Source: an uncultured Bacteroidales bacterium (lineage in GTDB: Bacteria > Bacteroidota > Bacteroidia > Bacteroidales > UBA3824). From it: a DNA stretch of 64,000 nucleotides. The DNA lies in NCBI GenBank assembly GCA_905234655.1, contig CAJOJG010000004.1:4111-68110 (forward strand). Direction: 5' to 3'. Below are positions 4,320-58,793 of the stretch, piece by piece. The notes under the pieces were generated by a model, which did not search any database, was not told the origin of the DNA, and worked only from the letters and a program-made list of their open reading frames with translations. Numbering within the stretch: the first letter of the stretch is position 1; each line of letters opens with the position of its first letter. Both the position numbers and the translations under genes were made by a program.

Positions 4320-7300
4320 ATGAAAAAAATAATCAGCATAATGCTTTTGATGTTGCTGACGGTTGCCGCGTTTGCGCAGAACGTCACAATCACTGGCAAC
4401 GTCAAGTCGGGCAACGACAACATGCCCCTCATCGGCACAACGATTGTGGAGAAAGGCTCTACCAACGGCACAATCTCCGACATCGACGGCAATTACAGCG
4501 TTACCGTTCCGTCAAACGCAACTCTCGTATTCTCGATGGTGGGCTTTGAAACTCAGGAAATCTCAGTCAAAGGACAGACCACAATCAACGTAATCCTCAT
4601 GGAAGACACAAAGAACATCGACGAGGTTGTGGTAATCGGTTACGGTACTGCAAAACGCAGCGAAGTAACAGGTTCAATCAGTTCCGTTGCCGCCGATGAC
4701 ATCACATCGTTCAACTCTGGCAACGCAATGAACGCCTTGCAGTCGAAAATCAACGGTGTCCAGATTTCCAACAACGGCACGCCTGGCAGCAGCCCCCGCG
4801 TCATTATCCGTGGCGTTACTACCGTCAACGGCTCCAACCCTCTCTACGTTGTGGACGGCATGCCCGTTGGCGACAACATCAACTTCCTCAACAATGAGGA
4901 TATCGAGAGCATGGAAGTATTGAAAGACGCTTCGGCGTCCGCCATCTACGGCACACGCGCATCAAACGGCGTTGTGCTTATCACCACCAAGAAAGGCAAG
5001 AAGGGACAAGCCAAGTTCCAATTCACCGCCAATGTCGGCATTAGCACCATTGGCGACCCCGACGTTGCCAAAGCATCTGAGTATGAGAAGGTTTATAAGA
5101 CCCGTTACACCAACGACAAACAAGTTCCCGCTTACAACGGCATCGACAACATCACCGACGCGGAAGGCACCGACTGGTGGGAGTCGACGGTCAACAAACT
5201 TGCTGTAACTCAAAACTATAACCTCAGTTTCTCTGGCGGCACAGACAATTTTGTGTACAGCGGAAGCTTTGGCTATTATCGTCAAGAAAGCCACTACAAT
5301 TACGGCTGGTGGGACAAGTTCAACGGACGCTTGAACACCGAATACACTTTCAACAAGTATGTGAAGCTCGGCGTTGAGTTCGCTCCCAAACTCGAGCGTT
5401 GGGACGACACTCCAAACCTCATGGGCGCGGCCATGTCAATGGACCCCACCACCGCAATTTTCCGTTACGACTGGGAAACCATCAGCAACGAATATTCGTG
5501 GTACTCGCGCTCAAACAACAACCAAGAATGGAATCCCGTGGCGTCTCTCAAGCGTCAGACCGCGCACAGCAACGAGTTTGGACTTTTGATGAATCCTTAC
5601 ATCGAAATCAAACCCCTTGAAGGTCTTACATTCCGCTCGCAGTTTGGCGACAACGCAAGGTTCAGAATCAGCGACGCTTTCACGCCCGAGTTCTTCATCG
5701 ACAACCTTGAACAAGCCACCACAAGCAAGGCAGAGCGCAACTCCCAAACGTGGAACGATTGGAACTGGACCAACACCCTCAACTATCAGAAGACATTTGC
5801 CGATGCCCACAACCTTAACGTGATGGTGGGCTACACAATGGAAAAATTCAGCCACTACTGGCTCACAGGCAGCCGTGAGGCCATTCCCAACAACAACGAG
5901 AACCTTTGGTACGTGTCTGCTGGTACAGAAAACCAACTCGCCAGTGGCAGCGACGATTTCAGCACCCTCGTTTCTTACCTCGGCCGTCTAATGTACAATT
6001 ACAAGAGCCGCTACTACCTGACAGCGAGCGTTCGTTTCGACGGTTCGTCCAAGTTCCCCGAAGGCAACAAGTTTGCAACATTCCCCGCCGTGTCGCTCGC
6101 ATGGCGTGTTACCGGCGAGGAGTTCATGCAAAACCAGCACATCTTCTCCAACCTCAAGCTCCGCGCTGGCTGGGGCAAAGTCGGCAACCAGAGCATCGAC
6201 AACTCCGCATATCTTTCCACGATTGGCACATCATACTACACCGTCAACGGGCAGATGGTAACAGGCAGCCAAGTTTCCTCTACCGCCAACACCGCAATCC
6301 AATGGGAAACTGTTGAGGACTACAACCTCGGTCTCGACATGGGTTTTTTGAACGACAGGCTCTCCGCTACATTTGAGATTTACAAGAAGAAAACTTCCGA
6401 CATGCTCCTCAAAGAAGCCAACCTCCTTATCCTCGGCTATCCCGAATGGGCTGGTCAGATTTGGACAAATGTGGGCAGCATGGAAGCCAACGGCTGGGAA
6501 CTTTCGCTCAACTGGAAGGACAACGTGAACCACGATTTCAAGTATGAAGTCGGCGTCAACATCTCTGGCGTAAAGAACAAGGCAAAAGACCTCGGTTTGA
6601 GCAGTCCGATTTTGACTGGCGGTTTTAACGGCGACTACATTATCCGCAACGAATCCGACGCAGAAATCTCTCGTTTCTATGGCTACAAGACGCTCGGATT
6701 GTTCCAAAATTGGGAGGATGTCAACTCCTACACCGACGAGCATGGCAATCTCCTTCAGCCCAACGCACAGCCCGGCGACCTCATTTTCGACGACCTCAAC
6801 AATGATGGCGTAATCGACGAAAACGACAAGACTTTCATCGGCAACGCTTTCCCGAAGATGTACATGGGCATCAACCTCGGCGCATCGTACAAGAATTGGG
6901 ACTTCTCGATGAATTTCTATGGCACATTTGGCAACGACATCTTCAACCGCACACGCGAACGCTACTCTGGCTCCGGCGGTCAGAACGTTTGGGCTGGCAC
7001 TCTCGAAGACGCTTGGCACTACGAAGGCCAGGACACCGACATTCCGCGCCTTTCGTACAACGATGCCAACGCCAACTACCTTACAGTATCCGACTGGTGG
7101 GTTGAGAACGGCAGTTACCTGCGTTGCAAACAATTGCAGATTGGCTACACTTTCCCGCAGCGAATGATTAAGTTTGGAACGCTCCGCGTTTCGGCATCGG
7201 CACAAAACCTCTTTACAATCACAAAATATTCTGGCTGGGATCCTGAAACCGCCGTTACAGGCAGCGTTACAGAAAGCGGCATAGACAATGTTGCTTATCC

Positions 7301-12314: not shown

Positions 12315-12322
12315 TACTTTTG
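12315..12322 (+). promoter_or_regulatory. Putative -7 promoter box for the lolD-like gene
   Basis: TACTTTTG matches TAnnTTTG, 51 nt upstream of the ATG at 12373. Confidence 0.45.
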
Positions 12323-12372: not shown

Positions 12373-13026
12373 ATGATTCAACTCAAAAACATAACAAAAT
12401 CTTTTGGCAACCTTCAGGTTCTCAAGGGCATCACCCTTGACATCAACGATTCGGAGATTGTCTCGATAGTCGGTGCAAGTGGTGCTGGAAAGACTACGCT
12501 GCTACAGATTGCCGGTACATTGTTGAAGGCGGACACTGGCGAGGTCATCATTGACGGAACTGACGCCAACCGTCTTGCTGGCAATAGTTTGGCAGCGTTC
12601 CGCAACAAAAATATTGGCTTTGTGTTCCAGTTCCACCATCTCCTGCCGGAGTTTGACGCTGTGGAAAATGTCTGCATACCCGCGCTCATCGGCGGCACTC
12701 CGCAGAAAGAGGCTGTTGAACATGCCAGGGAATTGCTTTCGTACCTCAATCTTTCCCACAGGTTCACACACAAGCCCGCTGAACTCTCCGGCGGCGAACA
12801 ACAGCGCGTCGCCATTGCCCGTGCGCTTATCAACAGCCCGAGCGTGATATTCGCCGACGAGCCGTCCGGCAATCTCGATTCCAAGAACCGTGACGAGCTC
12901 CACAGCCTTCTGTTCGACCTCCGTGAAAAGTTCAAGCATACTTTTGTGATTGTCACCCACGACGAGCATTTCGCCGACATGAGCGACCGAATCATACGGA
13001 TCAAAGACGGAAAAATTGAAAGTTGA
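12373..13026 (+). CDS. lolD: ABC transporter ATP-binding protein, LolD-like (lipoprotein-releasing system ATPase)
   Basis: 217 aa with Walker [10 protein letters not shown], the LolD-type segment [18 protein letters not shown], the signature [14 protein letters not shown] and Walker [13 protein letters not shown]. Confidence 0.85.
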
Positions 13027-13050
13027 AAGTTGAAAATTGAAAGTTGAAAA
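13016..13050 (+). repeat. Tandem heptamer array (TTGAAAR)x5 spanning the lolD stop codon
   Basis: Reads ttgaaag ttgaaag ttgaaaa ttgaaag ttgaaaa directly in the sequence. The lolD TGA (13024-13026) lies inside the array. Confidence 0.9.
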
Positions 13051-13069
13051 TTAGCATCCGCCGGATGGC

Positions 13070-13097
13070 AATTATGAATTATGCATTATGAATTATG
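13070..13097 (+). repeat. Heptamer array (MATTATG)x4, copy A of a recurrent 5'-of-gene element
   Basis: Reads aattatg aattatg cattatg aattatg and is followed by aaTTGAAAG. The annotated ATG (13088) of the next gene is one of the repeat ATGs. The same unit order occurs on the minus strand at 40095-40122. Confidence 0.9.
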
Positions 13098-13867
13098 AAT
13101 TGAAAGAACTGCTTGACGAGAAGTATCGTCAATATAATAATCCGTCGTTTATTGCCACTGACCCGATTCAGATTCCACATTCGTTCACGATGCGCGAGGA
13201 TATTGAGATTTCGGGATTTTTGGCATCGACGATTGCATGGGGTAATCGGAAGATGATTATCTCGAACGCCAAGAAAATGATGGACATCATGGGCAACCGT
13301 CCGTATGATTTTGTGATGGAATTTGATGCAAAGAACGCCGCCGACATGCCGCCGTTTGTGCACAGGACGTTTCAAAACCAGGATTTCCAGTTTTGCGTGG
13401 CAAGCCTTCAGAATATCTACAAAAATCATGGCGGATTGAAAAATGTCTTTGAGTCCGCGTTCCGTAAGCATGGCAATATCCACGACACGCTCTTCGATTT
13501 CCGCAAGGTGTTTTTTGAGTGCGACTTTCCATTGCGCACCGGCAAGCATATTGCCGATGTCAGCAAAGGTGCTGCTGCAAAGCGTCTTAACATGTACCTC
13601 ATGTGGCTTTGCCGTAAGGACAAGTCGAATGTCCATTTTGGAATTTGGGACATTCCGTCGTCGTCGCTCATGCTGCCACTCGACACTCACACAGCCGCCA
13701 CAGGCCGCGCCCTCGGCCTCATAACCCGCAAGGCAAACGACTGGAAGACCGTGGAGGAGATAACGGCTGAATTGAGAAAATTTGACCCCGACGACCCCGT
13801 GAAATACGATTTCGCGCTGTTCGGAATGGGAATTAATGAAAAGTTCAACGCCACCGTCCAACTCTGA
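13088..13867 (+). CDS. TIGR02757 (DUF2400) family protein
   Basis: 259 aa. The N-terminus YNNPSFIATDPIQIPHSF..DIEISGFLASTIAWGNRKMII is typical of this conserved hypothetical family. Confidence 0.75.
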   Translation: MNYELKELLDEKYRQYNNPSFIATDPIQIPHSFTMREDIEISGFLASTIAWGNRKMIISNAKKMMDIMGNRPYDFVMEFDAKNAADMPPFVHRTFQNQDFQFCVASLQNIYKNHGGLKNVFESAFRKHGNIHDTLFDFRKVFFECDFPLRTGKHIADVSKGAAAKRLNMYLMWLCRKDKSNVHFGIWDIPSSSLMLPLDTHTAATGRALGLITRKANDWKTVEEITAELRKFDPDDPVKYDFALFGMGINEKFNATVQL

Positions 13868-16859: not shown

Positions 16860-16977
16860 AGAGGTTTTTGAAAGGTATTCGACAGATATTCTATAAAGAT
16901 TTCGAAAGATTTTGACAGATATTCGAAAAAGATTTTGAAAGATTTGAAAAAATTTGAAAGATTTCTCGCGAAGCGAC
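16860..16977 (+). repeat. AT-rich degenerate tandem repeats ending in the second copy of the CGCGAAGCG repeat
   Basis: Contains repeated gacagatattc (x2) and gaaagattt(t) (x5) units. The stretch gatttgaaaaaatttgaaagatttctcgcgaagcgac follows at 16941-16977. A further aatcgcgaagcgac lies at 16987-17000. Confidence 0.85.
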
Positions 16978-17061: not shown

Positions 17062-17134
17062 TCGGTCTCCAGGGGATCGAACCCTGGACCCACTGATTAA
17101 GAGTCAGTTGCTCTACCAACTGAGCTAGAGACCG
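17062..17134 (-). tRNA. tRNA-Lys (anticodon CTT)
   Basis: 73 nt. I folded the cloverleaf by hand: acceptor CGGTCTC/GAGACCG, D-arm GCTCAGTTGGTAGAGC, anticodon loop CTCTTAA and T-arm CAGGG-TTCGATC-CCCTG. Confidence 0.9.
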
Positions 17135-17143
17135 AAATAAGAG

Positions 17144-17216
17144 AGCGGGAGACGAGACTCGGACTCGCGACCCCAACCTTGGCAAGGTTGTGCTCTACCA
17201 ACTGAGCTACTCCCGC
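17144..17216 (-). tRNA. tRNA-Gly (anticodon GCC), copy 1
   Basis: 73 nt: GCGGGAGTAGCTCAGTTGGTAGAGCACAACCTTGCCAAGGTTGGGGTCGCGAGTCCGAGTCTCGTCTCCCGCT. The anticodon loop is TTGCCAA. Confidence 0.9.
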
Positions 17217-17276
17217 ATGAATGCCGTCCTGATAAAATCAATAACGGCAAATTATGAAAACAGTCTAAATTTCTCG

Positions 17277-17349
17277 AGCGGGAGACGAGACTCGGACTCG
17301 CGACCCCAACCTTGGCAAGGTTGTGCTCTACCAACTGAGCTACTCCCGC
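17277..17349 (-). tRNA. tRNA-Gly (anticodon GCC), copy 2
   Basis: Identical 73-nt sequence to copy 1. Confidence 0.9.
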
Positions 17350-17380
17350 ATCAATAACAAAATATCTTCAAAAATCTTTG

Positions 17381-17466
17381 TGCCCGAAACCGGCATCGAA
17401 CCGGTACTGTCATTGCTGACAACAGGATTTTAAGTCCTGCGCGTCTACCAATTCCGCCATCCGGGC
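17381..17466 (-). tRNA. tRNA-Leu (anticodon TAA)
   Basis: 86 nt with acceptor GCCCGGA/TTCGGGC, anticodon loop CTTAAAA, a long variable arm TTGTCAGCAATGACAGT and T-arm ACCGG-TTCGATG-CCGGT. Confidence 0.9.
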
Positions 17467-17476
17467 GACTTGTTAG

Positions 17477-17549
17477 AGCGGGAGACGAGACTCGGACTCG
17501 CGACCCCAACCTTGGCAAGGTTGTGCTCTACCAACTGAGCTACTCCCGC
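17477..17549 (-). tRNA. tRNA-Gly (anticodon GCC), copy 3
   Basis: Identical 73-nt sequence to copies 1 and 2. Confidence 0.9.
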
Positions 17550-37893: not shown

Positions 37894-39132
37894 ATGAAAT
37901 CACCCAAAATCGCAATCATAGGCGGCGGCGCGTCGGGCTTTTTCTGCGCCGCCAACGTCAAGCAGATGATGCCGAAGGCTGACGTGACGGTCTTCGAGTC
38001 CGGCATACAGCCATTGCGCAAACTCGGAATGACTGGCGGTGGCCGTTGTAATATAACAAACACATTCGCCGCCGTCGACGACCTGCGCATGGCGTATCCG
38101 CGTGGGCATAACCTGATGAAAAAACTTTTCCATGAGTTTGACCACGAGGACACTTTTGAGTGGTTTGCCGGTCATGGCGTGGAACTCTACGCGCAGGACG
38201 ACGGGAGGGTTTTCCCGGTTTCAGAGAGCGCGCAGATGGTCTGTTCGGCATTATTATGCACCGTCAGTGGCCTTGGAGTGTGGCTCATGACGGGTCATAA
38301 GGCCGTTGGGATTAAGAAAATGGAAGATGGGAAATTTTCGGTGATTTTTTCTGACGGCGAATTTGAGGACGGATTTGACGCTGTGGTAGTAGCGACTGGC
38401 GGGTGGTCAAAAGACAGGCTGTACGAATCGTTGGAAACGCTTGGCATAGAGTTAGTTCCGCCAGTCCCGTCGCTGTTTTCCCTGAAGGTTAAGAGTAACA
38501 CTCTCACAAGTCTCATGGGTGCGTCCGTGGAGAGTGCGATTGTCGGAATCCCTGGTCAAAAATTTCGCGGCGATGGTGGCTTGATTGTCACGCATTTTGG
38601 ATTTTCAGGACCGTCGGTGTTGAAACTGTCGTCGTATGCGGCGAGGTTTTTGGCGGATAATAATTATAAATGCGACATCCTTATTAACTGGCTCGGAAAG
38701 ACCGACGAGGAAGTTCGCAATGAGATTTTGGGCATCGCCAATGTCAATCCTCTGAAATCCACCGCCACTGTCCACCCAAAGGGCCTGACGCAGCGGCTTT
38801 GGGAATTTCTGCTTTCGCGGGCTGAAATCGACCCGTCAACGAAATACTGTGAACTCGGGAAGAAGAACCTCAACAAGTTGACCAGCACACTCTCCGCCGA
38901 CTTGTACCACGTCTCGGGGCGCGGGCAATACAAGGACGAATTTGTAACGTGCGGCGGCGTGTCGTTGGATTGTGTAAACTCCAAAACGCTTGAATCAAAG
39001 GTTGTGAAAAATCTCTATTTCACCGGCGAGGCTCTCGACGTGGACGCAATCACCGGCGGGTTCAACCTGCAAAACTGTTGGACGACGGGAATGGTGGTTG
39101 CAAAGGCGATTGTAAAAGAACAAACGAATTAG
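37894..39132 (+). CDS. HI0933/BaiN-like NAD(P)/FAD-dependent oxidoreductase
   Basis: The likely start is MKSPKIAIIGGGASGFFCA at 37894. Contains GGGRCNITN and the C-terminal FTGEALDVDAITGGFNLQ. Confidence 0.85.
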   Translation: MKSPKIAIIGGGASGFFCAANVKQMMPKADVTVFESGIQPLRKLGMTGGGRCNITNTFAAVDDLRMAYPRGHNLMKKLFHEFDHEDTFEWFAGHGVELYAQDDGRVFPVSESAQMVCSALLCTVSGLGVWLMTGHKAVGIKKMEDGKFSVIFSDGEFEDGFDAVVVATGGWSKDRLYESLETLGIELVPPVPSLFSLKVKSNTLTSLMGASVESAIVGIPGQKFRGDGGLIVTHFGFSGPSVLKLSSYAARFLADNNYKCDILINWLGKTDEEVRNEILGIANVNPLKSTATVHPKGLTQRLWEFLLSRAEIDPSTKYCELGKKNLNKLTSTLSADLYHVSGRGQYKDEFVTCGGVSLDCVNSKTLESKVVKNLYFTGEALDVDAITGGFNLQNCWTTGMVVAKAIVKEQTN

Positions 39133-39153
39133 TGCATTGCGCATCGAATTGTG

Positions 39154-39188
39154 CGTTATGCATTATGAATTATGAATTATGCATTGAT
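39154..39188 (+). repeat. Heptamer array, copy B (cgttatg cattatg aattatg aattatg cattgat)
   Basis: Same MATTATG unit family as 13070-13097. It ends 3 nt before the ATG at 39192. Confidence 0.85.
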
Positions 39189-39191
39189 AAA

Positions 39192-39908
39192 ATGAAATAC
39201 GAAATGGAACAAGTGCTTGATTTTCTGAGGGAAATCAAGGTCAACAACAACACAGAATGGATGCACGCCCACCGTGCGGAATACGAGCGTGCGAGAGACA
39301 CTTTCAAGGCGTTGAGCCAGGAAATATTGACCAAAATGCAGGTCATCGACCCATTTTTGCGCGGTCTGGAACTGAAAAACTGCATTTTCCGTTTCAACCG
39401 CGACACCCGTTTTTCGGCGGACAAGGCACCGTACAAGCGGCATTTTGGCGTGTATTACGTGCCGGGCGGCAAGAAGGTGGTCGGCGCGGGCTATTACCTT
39501 CATATCCAGCCGGTTGATAGCGACGACCCCGACCCATTGTTCAGCCGAAGCATGGTTGACATCGGCATCTACATGCCGCCGTCCAAGGCCGCCAAAATCA
39601 TCCGCGAAGAAATCTATTACGGTGGCGGACAGCAACTTGTAGAGTTTTTGTCGCAGAAGAAGGTGAAGCAAACTTTCACCCTCGACAACGCCGACCCCTT
39701 GCGCGTCCTGCCCAAAAACCTCAAGGATTCGCCCTACGACCAGCTAATCCGCATGCGCAACTGGGACATGAGCCGCACCCTGACCGACGAGGAAGTATTG
39801 GCTGACGATTTCGTGGACCGCGTCATCGACATGTTTGCGCTCGGCAAGCCCTGGAACGATTTTTTCAACAATGTCTTGGACGGCGCAGATTTCGAGTCGG
39901 CGTTCTGA
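39192..39908 (+). CDS. DUF2461 / TIGR02453 family protein
   Basis: Contains MKYEMEQVLDFLREIKVNNNTEWMHAHRAEYE..CIFRFNRDTRFSADKAPYKRHFG. The track ORF start at 39078 reads through the repeat element and is unlikely to be real. Confidence 0.8.
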   Translation: MKYEMEQVLDFLREIKVNNNTEWMHAHRAEYERARDTFKALSQEILTKMQVIDPFLRGLELKNCIFRFNRDTRFSADKAPYKRHFGVYYVPGGKKVVGAGYYLHIQPVDSDDPDPLFSRSMVDIGIYMPPSKAAKIIREEIYYGGGQQLVEFLSQKKVKQTFTLDNADPLRVLPKNLKDSPYDQLIRMRNWDMSRTLTDEEVLADDFVDRVIDMFALGKPWNDFFNNVLDGADFESAF

Positions 39909-39929
39909 TGAAGTAATTGTCGCAACCGT

Positions 39930-40083
39930 CGAACCAACCCAAACGATGGTATTTGAGGTTGACATCGTAATAATCGTTGAGATTGTCGATGCCGATTATT
40001 TTCGTGTCGGGCTGTTCGTTAATGATGCGCTTGCAAAGATGCGAGCCGATGAAGCCCGCCGCGCCTGTGATGAGAATTGTCAT
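39930..40083 (-). pseudogene. N-terminal remnant (~50 codons) of an NAD-dependent nucleotide-sugar epimerase
   Basis: MTILITGAAGFIGSHLCKRIINEQPDTKIIGIDNLNDYYDVNLKYHRL is a Rossmann GxxGxxG N-terminus. Homology then ends and the frame runs into the 3' end of the convergent DUF2461 gene. Confidence 0.7.
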
Positions 40084-40094
40084 ATTTTTCAATG

Positions 40095-40122
40095 CATAAT
40101 TCATAATGCATAATTCATAATT
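40095..40122 (-). repeat. Heptamer array, copy C (minus strand: aattatg aattatg cattatg aattatg)
   Basis: Same unit order as copy A. The flanks are also shared (cgccRRatggc upstream, attgaaa downstream). It ends 11 nt before the epimerase-remnant ATG at 40083. Confidence 0.9.
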
Positions 40123-40136
40123 GCCATTCGGCGTTT

Positions 40137-40320
40137 TCAAACCCGTCTTATCCACGCCCCCGGCACATACGCCGTCGCATATCTTCCCACGCCCTGCAAT
40201 TCCACGAATACCCTTTTCTGATGCTTGTATTTCATCACAATGCCCTCGACCCCAGCGAACGGCCCGCCGATGACAACCACGCGGTCGCCGGTCAAGAGTG
40301 TTTTTTTTAGTGGCGTGTTG
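40137..40320 (-). pseudogene. C-terminal (KOW) remnant of a UpxY/NusG-like capsule-locus antiterminator
   Basis: ..LLTGDRVVVIGGPFAGVEGIVMKYKHQKRVFVELQGVGRYATAYVPGAWIRRV matches the UpxY C-terminal pattern (GD.V.V..GPF.G.EG.V....RV.V.L.G...ATAY.P). The N-terminal NGN domain is missing. Confidence 0.65.
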
Positions 40321-40358
40321 CACTCAAAAAAAGTGTCGCCTGATGTTGTTTGAAAAAA

Positions 40359-40374
40359 TATTTTTGTATTTTTG
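40359..40374 (+). promoter_or_regulatory. Two tandem putative -7 boxes for metA
   Basis: TATTTTTG TATTTTTG, 29-37 nt upstream of the ATG at 40403. Confidence 0.45.
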
Positions 40375-40402
40375 CATCGTATTAAATGAAAAGGAGGTAA
40401 TA

Positions 40403-41320
40403 ATGCCGCTGACAATTCCTGACAAACTTCCGGCAATAGAATTGCTGAAGAAGGAGAATATCTTTGTGATTGACAATTCAAGAGCCAACTCGCAGGACAT
40501 CAGGCCCTTGAAGATTGCCATTCTTAATCTCATGCCCATAAAGGAGACTACTGAGACTGACTTGCTGCGTCTGTTGAGCAACTCGCCGCTCCAGATTAAC
40601 ATAGATTTCATAAAGCTCCGCAGCCATGTCTCGAAGAACACTCCGATAGAGCACATGCAGCAGTTCTACCTCTATTTTGACATTGTTAAAAAGCGGAAGT
40701 ACGATGGACTGATTGTGACAGGTGCGCCTGTGGAACAGTATGAGTACGAGCAGGTTAATTATTGGAGCGAACTCACTGAGGTCTTCGACTGGGCGCGGAC
40801 TAATGTCACTTCAAAGATGTTCATCTGCTGGGGCGCGTGTGCCGCTCTGTACCATTATTATGGGATTCCGAAGCATGACACTTACGAGAAGGTTTTCGGC
40901 GTATTCAAGCACAATGTCCTCGAGCCGTTGAACCCGATTTTCAGAGGGTTTGACGATGTGTTCTATGTCCCTCATTCAAGGCACACGGAGATTGTGGCGG
41001 AGGATGTGGACAAGGTTCCGGAGATAAAAATCATGGCGTCGAGTGTCGATGCCGGGCTGTACATGATGATGGCCAAGGGTGGGCGTGAGCTCTATCTCAC
41101 TGGCCATGCGGAGTACAATGCGCGCACGCTTGACGCTGAATATAAGCGTGACCTCCAGAAGGGGCTGCATATCGACATTCCTAAAAACTACTATCCATAC
41201 GACGATCCCGACCTCGACCCGCTCGTAAGGTGGCGGTCTACGGCTAACCTCATGTTTTCCAACTGGTTGAACTATTTTGTATATCAGGAGACACCGTATA
41301 ATATTGATGATATTAAGTAG
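40403..41320 (+). CDS. metA: Homoserine O-acyltransferase (MetA family)
   Basis: Contains MPLTIPDKLPAIELLKKENIFV, IRPLKIAILNLMP.K..TE and GLIVTGAPVE. The track ORF start at 40298 is upstream of the promoter boxes. Confidence 0.92.
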   Translation: MPLTIPDKLPAIELLKKENIFVIDNSRANSQDIRPLKIAILNLMPIKETTETDLLRLLSNSPLQINIDFIKLRSHVSKNTPIEHMQQFYLYFDIVKKRKYDGLIVTGAPVEQYEYEQVNYWSELTEVFDWARTNVTSKMFICWGACAALYHYYGIPKHDTYEKVFGVFKHNVLEPLNPIFRGFDDVFYVPHSRHTEIVAEDVDKVPEIKIMASSVDAGLYMMMAKGGRELYLTGHAEYNARTLDAEYKRDLQKGLHIDIPKNYYPYDDPDLDPLVRWRSTANLMFSNWLNYFVYQETPYNIDDIK

Positions 41321-53509: not shown

Positions 53510-54268
53510 TTAGTGGCCTTCATAATATTCTGAGTTCCATTGCTCCAGGCTTGACGACTTAGCGACTACTGGATAGAGGACCATGTCCTTGTATGTGTCG
53601 AACTTTTCGGAGAGTTTATAGACGACGTCGCTGTCCTGCTCTTTCCAGCCGAGGAGGGAATAGCCGGAGGGAAGGTGGTTTAGCCAGGAGTAGAGGGAGA
53701 ATCGTCCGTTTTCTACGTCGACTGCAGTGTAGGCTATTTGATCTGTATAGCTTGGATTCGTGTAGTCGTAGTGGAAGGTGAGGGTGTACATCTCCAGTTT
53801 CCAAACTGCGTAGAGCGTGGTCGATTGGGCTTCGATGCTGTCTCCGGCGTTGTAGGTGATTTCCTTGGAGTCTTTTGATGTGCTCCAGCCGAGGAAGGAG
53901 TAGCCTTTGCGCGATGCCGACGGGAGTGTTGCCGCGTCGTCGAACTGCAGGTTCTCGACTTCGATGTCCGAGCCGGTCACGTCGAATGTTACTGTGAAGG
54001 CTGGTTCAGGAGGATTGATTGTCGTGGTGTCCGTCGGATTGGTGGTTGTGGTGTCCGTCGGGTTGGTGGTTGTGGTGTCCGTCGGATTGTCGGGTTTGAC
54101 CGTCGGGTCGTCGGGTTTGTTTTGGTTGGACGTTGTGTCCTGCGTGGATGGGGTAGGGGAGGGTGTTGGCTCTGGGTCGTCGTCATCGTCGCTGCCGCAT
54201 GATGAAAGCGTCAGTGAGTATGATAACGCCACTGCAAGTCCTACCATGATGAAAAAGCGTTTTTTCAT
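53510..54268 (-). CDS. Lipoprotein with a Thr/Pro-rich tandem-repeat linker and two Listeria-Bacteroides-type repeats
   Basis: The likely start is MKKRFFIMVGLAVALSYSLTLSS|CGSDDDDD at 54268. The linker is (NPTDTTTT)x3. The repeats are GYSFLGWSTSKD and GYSLLGWKEQDSD. The track ORF start at 54385 lies on the promoter box. Confidence 0.7.
   Translation of the reverse strand: MKKRFFIMVGLAVALSYSLTLSSCGSDDDDDPEPTPSPTPSTQDTTSNQNKPDDPTVKPDNPTDTTTTNPTDTTTTNPTDTTTINPPEPAFTVTFDVTGSDIEVENLQFDDAATLPSASRKGYSFLGWSTSKDSKEITYNAGDSIEAQSTTLYAVWKLEMYTLTFHYDYTNPSYTDQIAYTAVDVENGRFSLYSWLNHLPSGYSLLGWKEQDSDVVYKLSEKFDTYKDMVLYPVVAKSSSLEQWNSEYYEGH
54017..54088 (-). repeat. 24-bp in-frame tandem repeat x3 (encodes NPTDTTTT)
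   Basis: The plus strand shows ggtggttgtggtgtccgtcgg(a/g)tt repeated three times. Confidence 0.85.
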
Positions 54269-57134: not shown

Positions 57135-57872
57135 ATGAAAAAGATATTGTATGGCATAGGGGCTGTCGCGGTCATTGGTGGCCTGGTTTCGATGTTCAAC
57201 CATCCCTTCTTGGGGCTTATAGCCGCCGGTGCGGGCTTTGCGTTGGTCGTCGGCACGTTCATCGTCGGCAAACTCATGGACAAGAATATTCAGGACGGCT
57301 TCGACCGTGGTAACTCGTCGGACATGTCGCTTGAGATGAAGGTCAACCACCAGATTTCTAACTCAAGGCAGAACAAGTTCAAGGCGCAGAGCGAGATACG
57401 CAGGTTGACAGCTTGGTGTAACGATGCTATCTTCAGTACGTACCACGACGAGTTCGAGAAGGTCGGCGTGTATTACGATAAGGAGAAACTGCTCGACAAT
57501 TATGGTGAGATTAAGGAAAAATATGGAACGTCGCTGAGCTTCGAGACTACCGACAAGTGCGACCGTATCGTCGGCGACTATAAGTCGAAGATAGACGGCT
57601 ACAAGGAAAGAATCGGCATTTTTGAGAAGCAGCAGGAGGAATATGCCGAGCTCAAGGCCAAGCTCCAGGCTCTCAAGCAGCAGGAAAAGCGCATGAACAA
57701 GCTTGATGCCCATCAAGGCAAACTTGAACAGGCGTCACAGGCAGAAGGATTGTCCATCGTGGAGTCCCAGAGCGACTTCCGGCAGCTTTCAGAAGGCGAC
57801 ATTGCAAGAGAAGTCGCCGAGAAGGAGGCTTATTACAAGCAACTCGAAGAACTTAATTACAAGTATAAGTAA
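57135..57872 (+). CDS. Hypothetical membrane protein with a C-terminal coiled coil
   Basis: 245 aa with two N-terminal TM helices, followed by heptad-rich segments (EKQQEEYAELKAKLQALKQQEKRMNKL). No family was recognised. Confidence 0.55.
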   Translation: MKKILYGIGAVAVIGGLVSMFNHPFLGLIAAGAGFALVVGTFIVGKLMDKNIQDGFDRGNSSDMSLEMKVNHQISNSRQNKFKAQSEIRRLTAWCNDAIFSTYHDEFEKVGVYYDKEKLLDNYGEIKEKYGTSLSFETTDKCDRIVGDYKSKIDGYKERIGIFEKQQEEYAELKAKLQALKQQEKRMNKLDAHQGKLEQASQAEGLSIVESQSDFRQLSEGDIAREVAEKEAYYKQLEELNYKYK

Positions 57873-57879
57873 GAGGAAA

Positions 57880-57903
57880 GATTTATTGATTTATTGATTT
57901 ATT
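57880..57903 (+). repeat. 8-bp tandem repeat (GATTTATT)x3 followed by a 29-nt polypurine tract
   Basis: Read directly from the sequence. The purine-only run 57904-57932 contains gaggaaagag twice. Confidence 0.9.
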
Positions 57904-57939
57904 GAGGAAAGAGGAGAGAGGAAAGAGAAAAATCAGTAA

Positions 57940-58014
57940 ATCATAAATCAACAAATCATAAATCAACAAATCATAAATCAACAAATCGAAAATCAACAAA
58001 TCAATAAATAACAT
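57940..58014 (+). repeat. 15-bp tandem repeat (ATCATAAATCAACAA), 3 perfect plus 2 degenerate units
   Basis: Units start at 57940, 57955, 57970, 57985 and 58000. The array is roughly the inverse complement of the GATTTATT array and ends 11 nt before the tpiA ATG. Confidence 0.9.
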
Positions 58015-58025
58015 AAATAACAGAA

Positions 58026-58793
58026 ATGAGAAAACTTATCGTAGCAGGCAACTGGAAGATGAACACATCGGTTGCCGAAGGTGTTGAACTCGCCAAGAAA
58101 ATCAGCGCATACGCTGAGCAGAAGAACCTTCCCGCAGGCAAGCAGATTGTCATCGCTCCGCCTTTCACACACTTGGCTCCCGTAGCCGGTGCAATCAATG
58201 CAGACAAGGTAATCCTCGCCGCACAGGACTGCGCAGCGACTACTAACGGCGCGTACACTGGCGAAGTTTCGGCATCAATGCTCAAGGGCATCGGCGTAAA
58301 GGCCGTAATCCTCGGCCACTCAGAACGCCGCCAGTACTTCAAGGAGAACAGCGAAATCCTCCTCAAGAAAATCAAACTCGCTCTCGCTGAGGGTCTTGAC
58401 GTGATTTTCTGCATCGGTGAGACTAAGGAGCAGCGCGAGGCTGGCGCCAACCTCTACAACAATGTAATCAAGGCTCAGCTCGTGGACACTGTGTTCACCC
58501 TCACCGCTGACGAGTTCAAGAAGGTCATCATCGCCTACGAACCCGTTTGGGCTATCGGCACTGGCCTTACCGCCACACCCGACCAGGCTCAGGAAATCCA
58601 CGCGATGATCCGCAAGGCCATCGCCGACAACTTCGGTCAGGCTGTTGCCGACGACACCACAATCCTCTACGGCGGCAGCTGCAAGGCTTCTAACGCTGCT
58701 GAAATCTTCGCAAAGAAGGACGTTGACGGCGGTCTTATCGGCGGCGCGTCGCTCAAGGCCGACGATTTCGGCAAGATTATCGACGCAAGATAA
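58026..58793 (+). CDS. tpiA: Triose-phosphate isomerase
   Basis: 255 aa. Contains LIVAGNWKMN, ILGHSERR and IAYEPVWAIGTG. Confidence 0.97.
   Translation: MRKLIVAGNWKMNTSVAEGVELAKKISAYAEQKNLPAGKQIVIAPPFTHLAPVAGAINADKVILAAQDCAATTNGAYTGEVSASMLKGIGVKAVILGHSERRQYFKENSEILLKKIKLALAEGLDVIFCIGETKEQREAGANLYNNVIKAQLVDTVFTLTADEFKKVIIAYEPVWAIGTGLTATPDQAQEIHAMIRKAIADNFGQAVADDTTILYGGSCKASNAAEIFAKKDVDGGLIGGASLKADDFGKIIDAR

Follow-up and report, generated by a model that had tools for sequence, protein, structure and literature searches.

A composite heptanucleotide-repeat element between a lolD-like and a DUF2400 gene of an uncultured Bacteroidales bacterium, probably a member of a dispersed family of intergenic repeats

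How does a tandem-repeat element come to carry the stop codon of one housekeeping gene and, most probably, the start codon of the next? The question is raised by a locus in an uncultured Bacteroidales bacterium (GTDB lineage Bacteria; Bacteroidota; Bacteroidia; Bacteroidales; UBA3824), from which we analyzed 64,000 nucleotides (nt) of contig CAJOJG010000004.1 (assembly GCA_905234655.1, positions 4,111 to 68,110 of the forward strand), hereafter the window. At window positions 13016-13106, two different 7-nt tandem arrays flank a GC-rich centre between a lolD-like ABC ATPase gene and a DUF2400/TIGR02757 gene. We consider it probable, at roughly 60%, that this element is a member of a repeat family of heptanucleotide arrays dispersed through intergenic DNA, of the same kind as the STRR, GGGAATC, and TAACTGA repeats, and that its module has spread, is tolerated, and has been co-opted. 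Modules of the family occupy short, mostly co-directional spacers, abut stop and start codons, avoid divergent promoter regions, and turn over by unit changes.

The composite element reads as a first-pass annotation of this DNA had described it, and both of its arrays were recovered with period 7 by Tandem Repeats Finder (13012-13049, 5.4 copies; 13070-13101, 4.6 copies). On the forward strand, array 1, (TTGAAAR)5, spans 13016-13050 with the units TTGAAAG, TTGAAAG, TTGAAAA, TTGAAAG, and TTGAAAA. It is followed by the GC-rich centre, or foot (TTAG-CATCCGCCGGATG-GC; 13051-13069, +), and by array 2, (MATTATG)4, the conserved right arm (13070-13097, +; units AATTATG, AATTATG, CATTATG, and AATTATG). 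Both heptamer arrays are beyond chance. For two-unit patterns in the window, MATTATGMATTATG with at most one mismatch gave nine matches where 0.07 were expected, and TTGAAARTTGAAAR gave four where 0.30 were expected.

The two arrays and the centre fill the lolD/DUF2400 spacer, which measures 61 nt and not the 60 nt first given. The lolD-like gene (12373-13026, +; Pfam ABC_tran E=2.5e-32) ends within unit 2 of array 1 (TGA, 13024-13026), and the DUF2400 gene (13088-13867, +; Pfam DUF2400 E=1.3e-76) begins with the ATG at 13088, within unit 3 of array 2. Both positions agree with the list of open reading frames (ORFs), and the gene call of the public contig uses the same start. Because a TGA is present in every TTGAAAR unit, array 1 closes all three forward frames. 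Array 2 holds ATGs at 13074, 13081, 13088, and 13095 (frames 0, 1, 2, and 0); read from the sequence, mini-ORFs of 5, 5, and 2 codons begin at 13074, 13081, and 13095, respectively. The first five DUF2400 codons (MNYEL) are array-encoded, and array 2 most probably donates the DUF2400 start codon, with an in-frame TTG at 13100 as a possible alternative. A candidate 8-codon mini-ORF, MAIMNYAL* (13065-13091, +; ATG GCA ATT ATG AAT TAT GCA TTA TGA), can be read from the same letters; it opens at the foot ATG 13065 and ends in a TGA that shares letters with the DUF2400 ATG (ATGA). The terminal TTGAAAG that had been taken as the end of the element lies inside coding sequence, where GAA TTG AAA GAA specifies ELKE and aligns with homologues. 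We read the corresponding stretch, AATTGAAAG (13098-13106, +), as a decayed last unit or tail; it equals the family's MATTR and A-rich tail and codes for E-L-K of DUF2400.

Two further copies bring the density to three in the 64 kb of the window. Copy C is a single module (40084-40140, -), TTGAAAA-CGCCGAAT-GGC-(AATTATG AATTATG CATTATG AATTATG)-CATTG-AAAAAT, followed by an ATG at 40083-40081. It is 95.7% identical to the lolD/DUF2400 element (copy A) over 47 nt, including the foot CGCCGRATGGC and the tail MATTGAAA (nhmmer E=2.6e-17). The identical recurrence of a 31-nt core on the minus strand, reported previously, is real (40125-40095), and the core is flanked by further shared sequence, CGCCGRATGGCA and MATTGAAA at its two ends. 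Copy B (39133-39191, +) makes up the whole 59-nt spacer from the stop codon of an HI0933-like gene (TAG, 39130-39132) to the ATG of a DUF2461 gene at 39192. Its clear units (CGTTATG CATTATG AATTATG AATTATG CATTGAT) lie at 39154-39188, where a variant had been noted, and the heptamer phase begins at ~39126; both the sequence and nhmmer (E=2e-6) identify it as a diverged version of the element. All three copies directly precede a start codon, as first observed, and all lie in spacers between co-directional reading frames. These spacers contain no Bacteroidetes -7 box, and we infer that the copies are intercistronic.

Copy C faces only a 72-codon N-terminal fragment of an NAD-epimerase gene (39865-40083, -; Pfam Epimerase, profile positions 1-42 of 240 only) and therefore precedes a dead gene. 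Upstream of it lies the 3' remnant of a KOW-domain gene (40137-40300, -; Pfam KOW E=3e-6), which we read as probably NusG/UpxY-like. Together they form a fossil junction of KOW remnant, module, and epimerase fragment at 39865-40300 (-), between DUF2461 and an HTS gene. Window positions 40147-40291 are 85-89.5% identical to the sequence that precedes the same module at metagenome loci L148, L186, and L198 (L numbers designate retrieved loci), where the ORF after the KOW-gene 3' end and module begins MLNITVAGTGYVGMSLA. At L185, the module stands before an epimerase-like frame that appears longer than the window fragment (MKRILVTGGAGFIGSH...). The relative L122 has only 51 nt between DUF2461 and HTS, and there DUF2400 adjoins both of these genes, which in the window (39192-41320) are 26 kb away from it; the copy B element is absent upstream of DUF2461 in L122. 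The position of copies B and C at gene-order differences relative to L122 suggests that the repeats mark rearrangement breakpoints.

The family was sampled in metagenome contigs by the exact 24-mer GGCAATTATGAATTATGCATTATG; counts refer to the matches listed, and genes in the fetched loci are simple longest-ORF calls. The 70 hits correspond to 47 distinct loci after de-duplication. Their consensus consists of a T-run, (CATAATK)n, GGC(A/G/T)TCCGCCGGATGGC, (MATTATG)4-5, MATTR, and an A-run, with the tail consensus AATTATGCATTaAaAAAa; the foot of copy A (13051-13069) matches the GGC-led centre. Head-to-head inverted doublets are found at 27 of the 47 loci; in them, a centre of 15-18 nt separates a (CATAATK)n arm from a (MATTATG)n arm, the remaining loci being singlets or having a left arm of other heptamers. 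Inserts separate the two halves of the centre in L134, L163, and L181, which shows that what repeats is a directional module. It consists of a GC-rich foot (CCGCCGGATGGC; also written CYGCCGRATGGC), an array of 4-5 MATTATG units, and a tail of MATTR and an A-run, in all ~45 nt. By this build the window copies are half-elements. Array 1 of copy A is the counterpart of the family's variable left arm, and TTGAAAA-type left arms like its own are present in L136, L139, L167, and L177. Some contigs carry several copies (five in 14 kb in L160), and every family copy with GGATGGCAATTATGAATTATGCATTATGA (L130-L199) contains the potential mini-ORF MAIMNYAL*, its TGA overlapping the ATG of the next unit. 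The suggestion that the element is not random low complexity is borne out by this dispersed family, with conserved non-repeat flanks at 47 loci.

Locus L160 (CEAC01032537.1) lies on a contig of 55% GC and has a purine-rich stretch, GGGGAGGG, at the 24-mer match, with an ATG 19 nt downstream. This stretch may be a Shine-Dalgarno-type start, and the carrier of L160 may not be a Bacteroidete; L141 and a Ruminococcus metagenome-assembled genome (MAG), L033, resemble it. The exact 24-mer was present in only two viral contigs. BLAST of the element gave no match among PLSDB plasmids and one match among GenBank phages (38 nt, in an unannotated record).

Classified spacers of the de-duplicated loci are co-directional in 24 cases, convergent in six, and divergent in one. 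The foot (left) side faces a gene end 26 times and a gene start 10 times (p=0.011). For the array (right) side, gene starts and gene ends are about equally frequent neighbours (20 and 19; singlets, 7 and 7), so the rule that the element always sits 5' of a start codon, which the window copies had suggested, fails across the 47 loci. The array ATG is the sole candidate start in a few copies, for example L130 and L147 (MNYELK...).

Close relatives document the turnover of the module. L144 and L171 differ by a 7-nt indel between flanks that are 96% identical, L138 has two 20-nt repeats more than L155, and L131 and L158 also differ in unit number between close strains. The left arms of L147 and L177 are unrelated, with downstream sequences that are 100% identical.

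Orthologous lolD/DUF2400 junctions, fetched via homologues of the DUF2400 protein, were compared in six relatives. L122 (DUF2400 protein identity 79%, spacer 71 nt) has CCGRAWGGC and four MATTATG-type units that include the start codon, and L123 (83%, 78 nt) has a module of the L122 type with substitutions. The spacer of L125 (81-82%, 28 nt) is degenerate, those of L126 and L128 (75-76%, 15 nt) contain no repeat, and that of L129 (77-78%, 233 nt) contains (YAATGGA) x11. In L129 (1268-1500), the YAATGGA units stand directly after the stop codon and are followed by a duplicated ~40-nt segment. The 35 nt from GGC to the tail are identical to the window at 35/35 positions in L122 and 31/35 in L123; the coding flanks of the junction are 76-82% identical and the array-1 region 58-61% (L122, L123). 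The position of array 1 is held at orthologous junctions by other heptamers (GGAAAGA, TTAAAGA, GGATAGA, and YAATGGA x11), and array 2 has four units in the window, L122, and L123, where it changes by substitution. A right arm conserved without change in unit number, next to a diverged array-1 region, indicates that it is the left part that turns over.

The DUF2400 N-termini MNYELL and MDYALL of L122 and L123 (homologues P0005, MNYELLKD, and P0002, MDYALLKE) imply that the starts of these genes are array-encoded as well. Homologues without an array begin MTEIEL (MTEIELKE) or METADL (METADLKE) at the same alignment position, and the window N-terminus MNY-ELKELLD aligns with the homologue pattern MxxxELKEFLD. 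Compared as insertion sites, the junctions of L126 and L128 are empty and those of the window, L122, and L123 are filled, with flanks (75-83% protein identity) too diverged to define insertion boundaries.

Arrays of the same heptamer also occur without the foot. A genome scan for ATTATGMATTATGMATTATG, with one genome per species, found (MATTATG)n in at least 120 stretches, the rough expectation for random equal-base sequence being ~4. With the module at 47 metagenome loci, this removes the concern that the window copies reflect local duplication only. Among the matches listed, the main carriers are rumen and gut Bacteroidales MAGs, and the others include Flavobacteriales, Chitinophagales, Ruminococcus, Treponema, Lentisphaeria, Verrucomicrobia, Chloroflexi, and many cyanobacteria. 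At the 120 genome loci listed, 143 of 144 (MATTATG)n arrays are outside long ORFs. Period 7 dominates (335 arrays, versus 30 of period 6 and 29 of period 8), and 120 different period-7 units are present, often concatenated. Relative to neighbouring genes, these flank-less arrays have no orientation bias (downstream gene in the same direction 59, opposite 71; upstream gene 67 versus 63). An assembly artefact was rejected, as arrays are found in many independent assemblies and in the isolates Ruminococcus flavefaciens FD-1 and ATCC 19208.

In viral contigs, the two heptamers of copy A form arrays in at least 119 and at least 120 stretches, compared with 36 and 49 for composition-matched permutations. 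The order of copy A, a TTGAAAR array and then a MATTATG array, was seen at four independent loci versus one for all other arrangements; it is present in L136, L177, and viral contig L255. The latter (IMGVR_UViG_3300020048_000510) has (TTGAAAR)n followed by (AATTATG)n at ~1930-2110 and ~4450-4640, with no GC-rich centre. Viral contigs L246, L229, L280, and L476 have 4-6 arrays each.

Heptamers are reported to be over-represented among the long simple-sequence repeats of bacteria, with polymerase slippage proposed as the cause (Mrazek 2007, as summarized in PMC4679880 and PMC4692102). GGGAATC in Xanthomonas and GGGGAYT in Nostoc are dispersed, ~90% intergenic, and ORF-proximal, and occur on both strands; they lie mostly between co-directional genes and vary between close relatives (PMC4692102). 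For TAACTGA repeats, which occur in Beggiatoaceae, cyanobacteria, and some Bacteroidetes and stand a few nt before starts, a translational role has been proposed (PMC4679880). The origin and function of bacterial heptanucleotide repeats are described as unexplained (PMC4692102, PMC4679880). Our full-text literature search returned no paper with ATTATGAATTATG or its complement, and a search on REP (repetitive extragenic palindromic) sequences or MITEs (miniature inverted-repeat transposable elements) of Prevotella or the rumen returned nothing relevant.

Three features that characterize the heptanucleotide families, namely tandem 7-nt units, an intergenic location, and turnover between close relatives, were found here; for the number of arrays of one unit within a genome, the observations are three copies in 64 kb of the window and up to five in 14 kb of other contigs. 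Like STRR (Calothrix/Nostoc), GGGAATC, and GGGGAYT, the present family consists of dispersed and apparently many arrays of one 7-nt tandem unit. These arrays are at least ~90% intergenic, within tens of nt of an ORF, mostly in co-directional spacers, and on both strands; their length and sequence vary between relatives, inverted pairs occur occasionally, and slippage is the proposed cause. The present unit differs from those three in being AT-rich (MATTATG or TTGAAAR) and without G-quadruplex potential. Further differences are the conserved non-repeat GC-rich foot, the frequent and precise head-to-head doublets, a 24-mer common to contigs of very different GC content, and footless arrays in several phyla and in viral contigs. 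With TAACTGA (MacGregor 2015, PMC4679880), it shares sets of 2-6 heptamers, often in forward orientation a few nt upstream of starts, a unit with stop codons, and a patchy phylogenetic distribution that suggests transfer. The unit sequence is a different one, however, and it contains an ATG that can itself give a start codon; the upstream-of-start rule fails here (20 versus 19), and palindromic GC-centred doublets are not described for TAACTGA.

Two further classes of short repeats resemble the family in part. The features that appear to be shared with REP/BIME and REPIN elements are a short, high-copy extragenic repeat, singlets beside inverted hairpin doublets, a family sequence kept across loci, and a preference for intercistronic and 3' spacers with rarity in divergent promoter regions. 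Hairpins form in the family doublets, and the three window copies have no significant structure. In Proteobacteria, REP/BIME and REPIN elements are imperfect palindromes, GC-rich and ~35 nt long, that have a 5' GTAG and are mobilized by RAYT transposases. The arms here are instead AT-rich tandem heptamers, and the GTAG tetranucleotide is absent from both the family consensus and the window copies. Bacterial MITEs, such as the Correia elements of Neisseria, ERIC, RUP, and BOX, are non-coding sequences of ~100 nt with inverted arms. Like them, the family is gene-adjacent and would be co-transcribed, with doublet stems long enough for RNase III; MITEs can alter neighbour expression, and the family may do so. 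Terminal inverted repeats around a short non-coding core, as in MITEs, are found in the family doublets, the window copies being half-elements. Differences from MITEs are that the number and identity of arm units drift and that singlets are common; neither a target-site duplication nor a clean empty site was identified, the flanks compared being too diverged to mark insertion boundaries.

We propose the following course of events for a repeat family of this kind. Replication slippage, or unequal exchange of 7-nt units, would create the arrays and drive their turnover, and the module would spread, or be homogenized, by a REP/MITE-like or recombinational process. Three properties could make it tolerable in intercistronic spacers: with TGA in the units, and TAA in their complement, no reading frame stays open; an ATG is available in each frame; and singlets would form an AU-rich, unstructured leader suited to the Shine-Dalgarno-independent initiation of Bacteroidetes. 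In the lolD-DUF2400 spacer, which is probably part of a polycistronic mRNA, the element would have been co-opted to provide the lolD stop, the DUF2400 leader, and the DUF2400 start.

Several observations weigh against this account. In co-directional spacers, sense modules outnumber antisense ones (17 versus 7, p=0.06), which is suggestive and not significant. A downstream sense ATG lies at +7 to +22 in 25 copies, and in 19 of these 25 it falls at +9 to +12 past the last unit; such tight spacing could mark a functional translation-initiation region. The exact 24-mer is common to contigs of 36-59% GC, and the module is conserved above its coding flanks in species with ~80% protein identity. Both facts render pure neutral slippage insufficient; they call for selection, gene conversion, or a trans-acting mobilizing factor. 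No mobilizing or trans factor was identified, no search for a transposase or RAYT having been made. Nor was a target-site duplication identified; the T-run and the A-run of the family are inverted and not direct.

These points leave room for an explanation that we regard as unlikely overall, and that still ranks second: that the module is a functional intercistronic RNA element. A singlet would act as an unstructured AU-rich initiation region and a doublet as a long hairpin, whose base would join the upstream stop (at the U-run) and the start (at the A-run) for coupling, stabilization, or RNase III processing. The ATG at +9 to +12 in 19 of 25 copies, the sense excess of 17 to 7 in co-directional spacers, and conservation of the module above its coding flanks all speak for it. 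The array ATG is apparently used as a start in the window, L122, L123, and L130/L147; the candidate mini-ORF ends as ATGA on the DUF2400 start, and a comparable proposal exists for TAACTGA repeats (PMC4679880).

Folding of the RNA fits such a division of labour. The window copies, which are singlets, fold no better than shuffled sequence (z +0.89, -0.89, and -0.74 for copies A, C, and B), and the local hairpin of copy B (-18 kcal/mol) is not significant. Copy A forms a 5-bp stem of CAUCC with GGAUG around a 3-nt loop, since a palindrome with a 1-nt centre cannot pair fully. Doublets, by contrast, reach -31 to -46 kcal/mol with stems that the T-run and A-run lengthen (median folding free energy -33.8 kcal/mol, median z -5.4; 27 loci), and their centre forms the apical stem-loop; the clearest, L137, has ~27 contiguous base pairs. 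The test for arm-to-arm covariation (p=0.41) is uninformative, because the search pattern had a fixed right arm.

Against a functional RNA element, half of the modules face a gene 3' end (20 versus 19 overall, 7 versus 7 for singlets), and non-complementary heptamers freely replace left arms, which destroys the hairpin. Copy C serves a dead gene fragment, and arrays are also found in Firmicutes-like loci, with either terminators or a purine-rich stretch that we read as a Shine-Dalgarno site after them. A functional intercistronic role, either as an initiation region or through hairpin coupling or stabilization, is possible. Tight ATG spacing and conservation argue for it, whereas the even split between starts and ends, the replaced left arms, and the dead gene behind copy C argue against it.

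Other candidate signals were considered and rejected. The palindrome CATCCG-C-CGGATG does stand at 13055-13067, as first described, but its conservation does not extend to copy C, L122, or L123, so that it is no independent signal; the 12-mer foot shows no enrichment elsewhere in the window. At the Rfam 15 gathering score, only five tRNAs were found in the window and nothing at the element, and the Rfam search that had been advised found nothing meaningful around the element at E<=10; six full-length doublets gave only sub-threshold matches to generic hairpins (miRNA precursors). A Bacteroidetes promoter was rejected because no TAnnTTTG -7 box lies in or beside the three copies; the nearest -7 boxes are at 12315 (TACTTTTG; the lolD promoter, upstream of the gene) and at 12939, within lolD. 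The doublet has its T-run 5' and its A-run 3' of the stem on either strand, which is the reverse of an intrinsic terminator.

A stronger version of the RNA explanation would make the module a portable intercistronic cassette that gut and rumen bacteria and their phages exchange, a dedicated translational-coupling or re-initiation device of Bacteroidetes, which do without Shine-Dalgarno pairing. One arm would close the reading frames, the hairpin would bring the stop of the upstream gene next to the start of the downstream one, and the other arm would serve as an AU-rich leader with ATGs in all three frames. We find this improbable.

It seems very doubtful, too, that the arrays are sites for a DNA- or RNA-binding factor or for complementary transcripts, one per 7-nt unit, in a regulon of unrelated genes. 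An identical 24-mer at 47 unrelated loci, conserved across species, would suit such sites, as would the formation of arrays by both heptamers above composition-matched permutations. By sequence logic, CAUAAU arms and AUUAUG arms are complementary in all transcripts that carry them, and cold-shock proteins are described as binding heptamer repeats with one protein per unit (reviewed in PMC4679880). Yet no candidate factor was identified, and the neighbouring genes have no common theme (an ABC ATPase, DUF2400, DUF2461, an epimerase fragment, and unrelated ORFs at the metagenome loci). Both orientations occur, with gene ends as frequent as gene starts, and the number of units and the identity of the arms drift freely.

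Contingency loci of Haemophilus, Neisseria, and Campylobacter are simple-sequence repeats. Like them, the element is a tandem repeat at a gene 5' end with a period not divisible by 3, ATGs in different frames, and, at other loci, different unit numbers in close strains (L144/L171, L131/L158), but the further idea that gain or loss of 7-nt units shifts the frame or start and toggles DUF2400 has almost no probability and fails, because the four units, few for efficient slippage, are kept in three species of ~80% protein identity and change by substitution, an ATG 10 nt before the array end is by sequence logic in frame at any unit number, and the linked genes are housekeeping and not surface genes; judged by these features, the element at lolD/DUF2400 is not a phase-variation switch.

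Tandem repeats are also present elsewhere in the window. The spacer 57873-58025, between the ORF 57135-57872 and an ORF that begins MRKLIVAGNWKMN at 58026, consists wholly of short tandem repeats: TAA is followed by GAGGAAA, (GATTTATT)x3, (GAGGARA)x4, and ~11 units of AAATCAAC/AAATCATA up to the ATG. Since this spacer is made entirely of repeats, repeat-built spacers seem to be a habit of this genome. Nested tandem repeats with periods of 10-11, 23, and 33 nt lie at 16866-16965, beside five tRNA genes (17062-17549, -), and at 54012-54119, 3.2 copies of a 24-nt repeat precede 2 copies of a 21-nt repeat.

As a dispersed repeat family of heptanucleotide arrays, the modules described here are unusual for their class in having a conserved non-repeat foot and precise inverted doublets. 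Their sharing is also unusual, with an identical 24-mer across very different GC contents and bare arrays across phyla and viral contigs, and so is the direct origin of stop codons and, most probably, start codons of housekeeping genes from the repeats. For genome annotation, the family is a caution that repeat arrays can be the source of start codons and of N-termini such as MNYEL, and the arrays may mark synteny breakpoints. A culturable carrier, if there is one, would allow us to ask whether these modules are selfish DNA or part of Shine-Dalgarno-independent initiation, and what holds the sequence of the array constant.

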